A DNA stretch of 64,000 nt from Escherichia coli (GTDB lineage: Bacteria > Pseudomonadota > Gammaproteobacteria > Enterobacterales > Enterobacteriaceae): the NCBI RefSeq assembly GCF_003334385.1, contig NZ_QOWN01000004.1. The stretch is one strand, 5' to 3'. A program made the translations under genes and the position numbers. The notes below the pieces were generated by a model. It ran no database searches. It was not told the DNA's origin and saw nothing but the letters and a program-made list of their open reading frames with translations. Every line of letters begins with the position of its first letter. Position 1 is the stretch's first letter. Shown here in pieces: positions 22,536 to 23,105 of this stretch.

Positions 22536-23105
22536 GTGTGAACCCTCGCGATAATCCTATTTAAATTTTTGCTGAATAGATCACAGTCACGTTCTGTTTT
22601 GTATGAACTGTTTTCAGAGCCTGACTAAATATCCGTTTGGTCGTTACCGGCTTTAGCAAATACCTCACAGTGAATATTGGCTGATTAAAGCAGCGGCAAA
22701 TTTATGCACTGTGATAAGCGGCTTTTTCAGAGAGAAAGACTCTCTGGCGATGGGTTTATAGTTTGTACTGCGCAGATGTTAATGTTTTGTTTGCTGTTAT
22801 CTTATTGATATTTATCGGTCTATTTTTTGTTCTCAGGGCAGATGTCATTAGGTTTATAGATTAATCTGATCTACCCATTTGTGGGTAAAAATACACATAA
22901 TGCGGGTGACATAATAGTTAATTAACTTTTGTTAGCGTTTTGAAATTAAAAACACCGTTCACCTGAAGAGATATTAATTTTTAGCGATGATGGAGGGATA
23001 ATTATATTTGATCTGGCACAAGTTTTACTGATGAAGGATGTAACTTGTGCCAGGGGTATTTTGCATTACGGTAATAATTATTACTTACAGATAACCAGCG
23101 ATCCG
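22536..23105 (-). promoter_or_regulatory. 570-bp AT-rich dcuB upstream region; contains 12-bp inverted repeat ctggcacaagtt / aacttgtgccag at 23013..23053
   Basis: Unusually long intergenic tract; inverted repeat read directly; function (dcuR terminator or operator) is inference. Confidence 0.5.

Follow-up and report, generated by a model that had tools for sequence, protein, structure and literature searches.

The dcuR-dcuB intergenic spacer of Escherichia coli as a composite dcuB control region carrying an FNR-site inverted repeat

Between dcuR and dcuB of Escherichia coli lies a long, AT-rich stretch with a perfect inverted repeat in it, and the question raised by this locus is whether the stretch hides an element of its own or belongs to the control of the neighboring genes. 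We analyzed it within 64,000 nucleotides of DNA (here, the window), the sequence of which is identical to positions 4,326,210 to 4,390,209 of E. coli K-12 MG1655 (NC_000913.3). Coordinates in that record equal window coordinates plus 4,326,209, and those of the older U00096.2 numbering equal window coordinates plus 4,324,232, a conversion that was checked via the 14-mer of the FNR site described below (4,347,240, window 23008). All genes concerned are on the minus strand, in the order dcuS (23822-25453), dcuR (23106-23825), dcuB (21195-22535), and fumB (19471-21117), and the dcuR-dcuB spacer occupies 22536-23105.

A sequence-only reading of this DNA had singled out the spacer as 570 bp long and AT-rich, and both properties are confirmed: its G+C content is 36.3%, versus 49.9% for the window. 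It is the longest annotated intergenic spacer of the 64 kb. Most spacers in the window are indeed shorter than 300 bp, as had also been stated; only six others are longer (400, 394, 364, 336, 324, and 324 bp). Orthologous spacers were measured at 26 loci (Escherichia, Citrobacter, Salmonella, and Trabulsiella), and every one is between 552 and 754 bp long; that of Escherichia is among the shortest of the 26 species-level genomes compared. These loci were taken from the best 80 DcuR loci; Klebsiella, Enterobacter, and S. enterica type strains fall outside this direct sample and are partly covered by metagenome contigs.

Alignment of the spacers revealed islands of very strong conservation amid fast-evolving stretches. 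Columns that vary within Escherichia make up a fraction of 0.00 of the FNR site, 0.04 of 22905-22950, and 0.08 of 22872-22897, versus 0.51 of 22951-23007. The conserved islands are explained by published genome-wide data (FNR and sigma-70 ChIP). The spacer is no empty gap; it is a composite, already-characterized dcuB control region. Read from dcuR to dcuB on the minus strand, it consists of the dcuR 3' untranslated region (UTR), an FNR site at -132.5, a probable DcuR-binding block, a sigma-70 promoter with a NarL-like palindrome, and a leader of about 347 nt, and its length and AT-richness are accounted for by the stacking of upstream activator sites on top of a long leader. The long AT-rich gap is thus removed as a false lead: it is a documented multi-input switch for transport in fumarate respiration, with FNR responding to anoxia, DcuSR to C4-dicarboxylates, and NarL to nitrate. 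As shown below, the published FNR site also explains much of the inverted repeat.

Activator sites and promoter of dcuB

The FNR site, TTGATCTGGCACAA (23008-23021), has two mismatches in total with TTGAT-N4-ATCAA, its left half being perfect and its right half retaining CAA, and it is conserved across genera as TTGATCT(G/A)(G/A)C(A/G)CAA. The exact 14-mer is listed at 4,347,240 (U00096.2) as PWM-predicted and bound (Table S6 in Myers 2013, PMC3688515). In the same study, the dcuB-fumB FNR ChIP peaks are at 4,347,259 and 4,347,216 (window 23027 and 22984), 13 to 30 bp from the center of the site; FNR occupancy by ChIP-seq and ChIP-chip is positive in all five data columns of Table S5; dcuB-fumB is activated in an FNR-dependent manner (Table S8, Category 1); and the site is placed at -132.5 from the known dcuB start under direct activation (Table 1, Category 1) (Myers 2013, PMC3688515). 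The dcuB control region has in common with other FNR-activated anaerobic promoters (frdA, dmsA, and nrfA) a bound site of the TTGAT-N4-ATCAA type, FNR-dependent anaerobic induction, and a sigma-70 promoter. It differs from them in geometry. Whereas the site is found at -41.5 +/- 4 in 19 of the 23 directly activated promoters for which a start is known (Myers 2013, PMC3688515), that of dcuB is at -132.5 with the DcuR block in between, and the class II model does not explain how FNR acts from there.

Given the distance of 132.5 from the center of the FNR site (23014.5), the dcuB start would lie near window 22882, 347 nt ahead of the dcuB ATG. Directly upstream of this inferred start is the promoter core TGTGTATTTTTA (22882-22897, minus strand), which has 12 columns that are invariant in four genera and includes the -10 hexamer TATTTT (22893 to 22888). 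A sigma-70 peak near 4,347,120 (window ~22888) rises from 59 to 291 anaerobically (Table S2 in Myers 2013, PMC3688515). Furthermore, the dcuB control region is a repeated target of adaptive mutations in the mouse gut. An A-to-T change selected there at 4,347,121 (window 22889) converts TATTTT into TATTAT, insertions of IS2 (window 22873 and 22894) and of IS5 (22653) were recovered, and a clone with IS2 at window 22873 showed raised dcuB expression anaerobically (PMC5094792). The invariant -10 region, the anaerobic sigma-70 peak, and the gut-selected -10 mutation all agree with a start near 22882.

Upstream of the promoter core is a near-invariant block, GTTTTTAATTTCAAAACGCTAACAAAAGTTAATTAACTATTAT (22905-22950, minus strand; about -23 to -68 from the inferred start), in which two of the 46 columns vary within Escherichia and which is almost invariant across four genera. 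The block is rich in A+T, contains TTAATTAA-like repeats, and is similar to AGTAATTAAATTAAT, a motif found upstream of frdA. In 2004, Abo-Amer reportedly described a new dcuB start together with a DcuR site located 27 bp upstream of it, and on the strength of that report, the block is probably the DcuR-binding region. The start itself is overlapped by a palindrome, TACCCAC-AA-ATGGGTA (22872-22887), the two inverted heptamers of which (TACCCAT on the plus strand and TACCCAC on the minus strand) match TACYYMT in a 7-2-7 arrangement; several other genera have TACYCAT-AA-AGGAGTA-like counterparts. Expression of dcuB is repressed by nitrate, and by its sequence match the palindrome is consistent with a NarL/NarP site for this repression. 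The gut-selected IS2 insertion at window 22873 falls within it.

The inverted repeat and its two arms

The repeat (23013-23053) consists of two perfectly complementary 12-nt arms, CTGGCACAAGTT / AACTTGTGCCAG (23013-23024 and 23042-23053), which enclose a loop of 17 nt. Counted along the minus strand, it begins at the 53rd nucleotide beyond the dcuR stop codon, exactly as the sequence-only reading had it, and the repeat would form an RNA hairpin in the dcuR 3' UTR, 53 to 93 nt past the stop. Folded as minus-strand RNA, it gives a predicted 12-bp hairpin of -18.6 kcal/mol (z = -5.7 versus shuffles). The idea that the repeat might be an operator holds for one of its arms: 9 of the 12 nt of the dcuB-proximal arm (23013-23024) fall inside the ChIP-seq-bound FNR site, while the distal arm (23042-23053, the 5' arm in the RNA) is outside it.

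About 5,400 of the 5,426 complete E. coli genomes contain the repeat, with a median of one copy per genome and a maximum of two. The alternatives weighed for it, a list headed by ALTERNATIVES, took in sigma-54, an sRNA, small ORFs, a dispersed repeat, and chance; a REP/BIME-like dispersed repeat is out because the sequence is single-copy per genome. Differences among E. coli strains are confined to its loop and flanks. Two natural isolates carry IS1 here, 14EC007 inside the loop (~23030-23035) and JX4-T at 23088-23096. Five perfect repeats of this kind exist in the 64-kb window, the other four being in the eptA-adiC, melR-melA, and ghoT-lysU spacers and at the 3' end of the aspX sRNA.

The two arms have different histories. 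The dcuB-proximal arm with its flank (TTGTGCCAGATCAAAT, minus strand) is mostly FNR operator and is kept in every genus examined, whereas the distal arm is an addition specific to Escherichia and Citrobacter koseri. The latter has a 10-nt version of the repeat, GGCACAAGUU / AAUUUGUGCC, with one G.U pair. At the loci sampled, the distal arm is missing from species of the C. freundii complex, C. amalonaticus, Salmonella, and Trabulsiella. Likewise, the predicted pairing between the FNR site and upstream sequence rises above that of shuffled controls in Escherichia (0/200) and C. koseri (0.02) only. Other genera were considered as carriers of FNR-site hairpins of their own; the S. diarizonae fold is suggestive, but its partner sequence is not kept in S. 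enterica-like contigs, and outside Escherichia and C. koseri, pairing does not exceed shuffled expectation. The addition of the distal arm means that the FNR-site sequence pairs into a stable hairpin in the dcuSR transcript. Most genera with the FNR site are without this hairpin, which makes it dispensable for dcuB control.

Does the hairpin, then, have a function, or is the repeat an FNR operator with a fortuitous complement? We consider the latter a possible, though not the favored, explanation. In its favor, FNR binding fully explains one arm, the hairpin is missing from most genera in which the FNR site is kept, and by a back-of-envelope estimate a fraction of one such repeat is expected by chance per 64-kb window. 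In addition, the hairpin shows no compensatory covariation, none of its 12 pairs being altered on both sides; since 8 of these pairs are constant throughout, the test is not a powerful one. Four observations argue against a fortuitous complement. (i) Within the spacer, a perfect repeat of at least 12 nt with a loop of 3 to 40 nt arose in 6 of 2,000 dinucleotide shuffles (P ~0.003). (ii) Over seven Escherichia lineages, the distal arm has 0 variable columns of 12, versus 12 of 34 in the adjoining loop and flank (Fisher p = 0.02); both arms are constant save for one G.U-compatible change in arm B of E. albertii, whereas the loop and flanks vary. (iii) C. koseri retains a 10-bp version. (iv) The sole two arm substitutions, which are one-sided and both belong to the E. 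albertii lineage, create G.U pairs on the minus strand, the sense strand of dcuR, and would give A.C on the plus strand. These two changes hint faintly at selection on the dcuR-sense RNA, and the pattern of conservation as a whole suggests that the hairpin may be selected at the RNA level. We therefore prefer the reading in which the repeat is not a mere coincidence, and the spacer is probably a composite dcuB control region in which the repeat joins an FNR operator to a lineage-specific arm and forms a hairpin at the Rho-terminated 3' end of the dcuSR transcript.

The dcuB leader and its stem-loop

Derived from the start at 22882, the dcuB 5' leader extends over ~347 nt (22536-22881, minus strand). 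The repeat had been proposed to be part of a long regulated leader; such a leader does exist in the spacer, but the repeat, at -131 to -171 relative to the inferred dcuB start, is upstream of it. The leader has a conserved element of its own at 22728-22754 (minus strand, about +128 to +155), 270 to 325 nt away from the inverted repeat. It is composed of CCCAUCGCC, which is invariant, followed by a 7-bp stem-loop, CAGAGAG-ucuuu-CUCUCUG (22728-22746). Across 23 lineages, four of the seven pairs are altered on both sides, and 91% of cells are paired, versus at most 67% with slid controls. On the sense strand, 10 G.U cells stand against 2 A.C cells, which points to a helix on that strand. The element was also found in C. 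koseri and in S. enterica-like contigs.

The covarying stem has no terminator tail and so resembles a cis-acting element of dcuB mRNA. In the accessible literature, we found no description of it in connection with the dcuB leader, the dcuB mRNA, or an sRNA. The leader is similar to the long 5' UTRs with cis-acting RNA structures and premature Rho termination surveyed by Adams (Adams 2021, PMC7815308) in being ~347 nt long and A/C-rich and in having a covarying stem-loop. Unlike those, its element has no known 3' end, ligand, sRNA partner, or phenotype.

A long spacer with several ORFs of 15 to 35 codons and a covarying stem-loop in the leader might also be taken to hide an unannotated sRNA or a small protein gene, as the sequence-only reading had proposed, but this is very unlikely. 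A search of 19000-26000 gave no Rfam match at E <= 1, and Term-seq under three aerobic conditions, in which dcuSR expression is likely low, reported zero 3' ends in the spacer, the hairpin included. The spacer is unannotated in NC_000913.3, a record that does include newly described sRNAs and small proteins, among them aspX and pmrR. Every ORF of 30 to 35 codons loses its start or frame or gains stops in at least one other Escherichia lineage; a few of those of 15 to 19 codons stay open, and these have no other support. Within the ~347-nt leader, no small ORF is conserved across Escherichia. The proposal of an sRNA or small ORF is accordingly dropped, and the leader stem-loop is better read as a cis-acting part of the dcuB transcript.

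The 3' end of the dcuSR transcript

On the minus strand, the hairpin is closely followed by a C-rich, G-poor tract (22963-23007). In K-12, it contains 11 C and 2 G in 45 nt. In all seven Escherichia lineages, the counts are 11 to 13 C and 2 to 5 G in 45 nt, although the sequence is among the most variable of the spacer; in other genera, C is roughly equal to G in the same tract. Composition that is kept without sequence conservation gives it the appearance of a rut tract. A bicyclomycin-sensitive region of Rho-dependent termination has been mapped to 4,349,209 on the minus strand (window 23000), within this tract, with a score of 3.32 and p = 4e-10 (Supplementary file 2 in Adams 2021, PMC7815308). 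Reads upstream and downstream numbered 90 and 44 without treatment and 309 and 502 with bicyclomycin (Adams 2021, PMC7815308). The coordinate follows the stem by 13 nt and the dcuR stop codon by 106 nt, figures that are approximate because the score is computed from 800-nt windows, and the signal could partly be termination inside the dcuB leader. Rho coordinates of this type tend to mark processed ends rather than points of termination (Adams 2021, PMC7815308).

These data recast the earlier proposal of a weak dcuR terminator: the repeat is located at a published region of Rho-dependent termination, but it does not have the features of an intrinsic terminator, namely, a U-tract and a small loop. 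That the repeat acts as an intrinsic (Rho-independent) terminator of dcuSR is highly improbable. It has, like such terminators, a stable stem soon after the stop codon, at 53 nt. However, the stem is followed by AUCAAAUAUAAUU and no U-tract, the loop of 17 nt is large, a pattern scan returned 0 sites, and bicyclomycin raises read-through in this Rho-sensitive region; in the portion of the Term-seq-based catalogue available to us (TERMITe supplements), dcuR has no entry. A simple scan for intrinsic terminators after dcuR in Citrobacter detected none on the dcuR strand and one on the opposite strand of one locus. A terminator on the plus strand of the E. coli spacer (the stem followed by GGGTATTTTG) was rejected as well, there being no reported plus-strand 3' end and no plus-strand gene that runs into it. 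As for DNA-level readings, it is just as improbable that the arms are half-sites of a 12-17-12 dyad operator for an unidentified dimeric regulator or mark a sigma-54 promoter (TGGCAC-N5-TT..): the dyad has no mismatch and TGGCAC fits the -24 element of sigma-54 promoters, but beyond Escherichia and C. koseri only one arm is conserved, which fits a dyad operator poorly, the GC required at -12 is absent (after GG-N10 comes AC on the plus strand or AT on the minus strand), and the main text of the sigma-54 ChIP-seq paper (Bonocora 2015) gives no dcuR, dcuB, or dcuS site.

The anatomy of the spacer, FNR binding, the position of the promoter, sensitivity to Rho, and the pattern of conservation are shown by the data above. 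Returning to a hairpin at a Rho-terminated 3' end, the following sequence of events can be envisaged. Polymerase leaving dcuR would transcribe the hairpin and continue, not stopping there because no U-tract follows the stem. Rho would load on the C-rich tract just downstream, and termination would occur before or within the dcuB promoter. Exonucleases acting 3' to 5' would then trim the RNA back to the hairpin, which we infer to matter in its own right as a protector that forms the stable 3' end of the dcuSR mRNA. As a result, the dcuB promoter would be insulated from read-through. The hairpin would have been built in the Escherichia/C. koseri lineage by recruitment of the pre-existing FNR operator as its 3' arm.

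Rho terminators with trimmed stem-loop 3' ends are a described class (Dar and Sorek 2018, in Adams 2021, PMC7815308), and the dcuR 3' end is similar to them in having more than 50 nt of untranslated RNA, a hairpin without a U-tract, a C-rich and G-poor tract, and a bicyclomycin-sensitive region a few nucleotides past the stem. It differs in two ways. No 3' end is mapped here at single-nucleotide resolution, and the 3' arm of the hairpin is the operator of the next gene, a feature with which such terminators have not been described.

We put forward tentatively, and with less confidence than the composite reading of the spacer, the fuller proposal that the FNR operator doubles as the 3' arm of a stem-loop protecting the Rho-terminated dcuSR 3' end and that the stem-loop at 22728-22754 is a cis-regulatory element of the dcuB leader. 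A single sequence might then serve as both a DNA operator and an RNA 3'-end structure. If so, a 12-nt stretch would be constrained as DNA (by FNR) and as RNA (by the hairpin) in Escherichia and C. koseri, and the stability and insulation of a sensor-regulator transcript would be tied to the control region of its main target. The leader stem-loop, for its part, would modulate dcuB after initiation, e.g., through Rho attenuation or through access of an RNase or an sRNA. Two points go beyond the accessible literature: (i) the location of the far-upstream FNR site of Escherichia within a conserved hairpin at a region of Rho-dependent termination and (ii) the covarying stem-loop in the dcuB leader. 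The dcuB control region itself was already known, and either point would be a modest addition to a well-studied system rather than a new kind of element.

Between the dcuR stop and the hairpin, a conserved AT-rich block (23058-23093) contains a perfect 14-bp palindrome, GTAATAATTATTAC (23071-23084). The block with GTAATAATTATTAC follows the dcuR stop in all genera compared, and in the predicted folds of Citrobacter and Salmonella, it is flanked by lineage-specific long-range repeats.

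A conserved stem-loop in the dcuB leader

On the minus strand of the dcuB leader, at 22728-22754, an invariant CCCAUCGCC is followed by a 7-bp stem-loop, and the element is marked both by conservation and by compensatory changes. When Escherichia, Citrobacter, Salmonella, and Trabulsiella are compared, four of the seven pairs have changed on both sides, and the cells of the stem include 10 G.U and 2 A.C combinations; because of this ratio, the sense strand is favoured as the one that folds. In most lineages the stem-loop lies at a near-constant distance (212 to 218 nt) from the dcuB ATG. 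We found no description of it in the accessible literature.

The length of the spacer varies among orthologues (552 to 754 bp). Near window positions ~22816-22840, in the early leader, most of the non-Escherichia genomes (orthologous loci L008-L027 and L079) carry ~60 to 180 bp of extra DNA, which includes a hairpin, GTAGCA..TGCTAC. The Escherichia spacer is among the shortest, despite having been flagged as unusually long in the sequence-only reading.

Candidate regulator sites and adaptive mutations

Three copies of TCACAGT/ACTGTGA (22581-22587, 22665-22671, and 22708-22714) in the leader resemble CRP half-sites (TGTGA). Two of them make an 8-bp inverted repeat (22665-22676/22703-22714), and the copy nearest dcuB (TGTGATCTATTCAGCA, 22570-22585) is kept across genera. 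The leader also contains a second FNR-like sequence, TTGATATTTATCGG (22805-22818, two mismatches), the conservation of which is confined to Escherichia. Overlapping the inferred dcuB start, TACCCAC-AA-ATGGGTA (22872-22887) matches the 7-2-7 arrangement of a predicted NarL/NarP site and is kept in several other genera.

Both dcuB and frdA are DcuR targets. Upstream of frdA, AGTAATTAAATTAAT (56295-56311) is similar to the block AGTTAATTAACTATT upstream of dcuB; because the two genes share this regulator, the sequence common to both may be a DcuR recognition sequence.

The dcuB promoter and leader were hit by adaptive mutations during evolution in the mouse gut (PMC5094792). Placed on the window, one selected A->T change at 22889 converts the -10 hexamer from TATTTT to TATTAT, and two IS2 insertions, at 22873 and 22894, flank the -10 hexamer and the start, the former being inside the NarL/NarP-like palindrome. 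A selected IS5 insertion, at 22653, is within the leader (PMC5094792).

The dcuR-proximal part of the spacer

Directly after the dcuR stop, an AT-rich block (23058-23093) that includes a perfect 14-bp palindrome, GTAATAATTATTAC (23071-23084), is conserved across genera; in Citrobacter and Salmonella, predicted folds show it flanked by lineage-specific long-range inverted repeats. The block may serve as a distal site for a regulator or may belong to a structure at the dcuR 3' end. On the minus strand, the tract at 22963-23007 is C rich and G poor (11 to 13 C and 2 to 5 G in 45 nt), a rut-like composition. This bias is found in all Escherichia lineages, though the stretch is among the fastest evolving, and is absent from the other genera compared.

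IS1 is present in the spacer of two natural E. coli isolates. In 14EC007 (L084) it lies at ~23030-23035, in the loop of the 12-nt inverted repeat, and separates the arms; in JX4-T (L088) it lies at 23088-23096, shortly past the dcuR stop, and 9 bp of target sequence are duplicated.

Long inverted repeats elsewhere in the window

Outside this spacer, the window holds four perfect inverted repeats of at least 12 nt. The one between melR and melA (15568-15623) is an 18-nt pair. The remaining three are tight hairpins, terminator-like in appearance, at eptA/adiC (9430-9459), at ghoT/lysU (26946-26979), and downstream of aspA, at the aspX sRNA 3' end (40630-40661).
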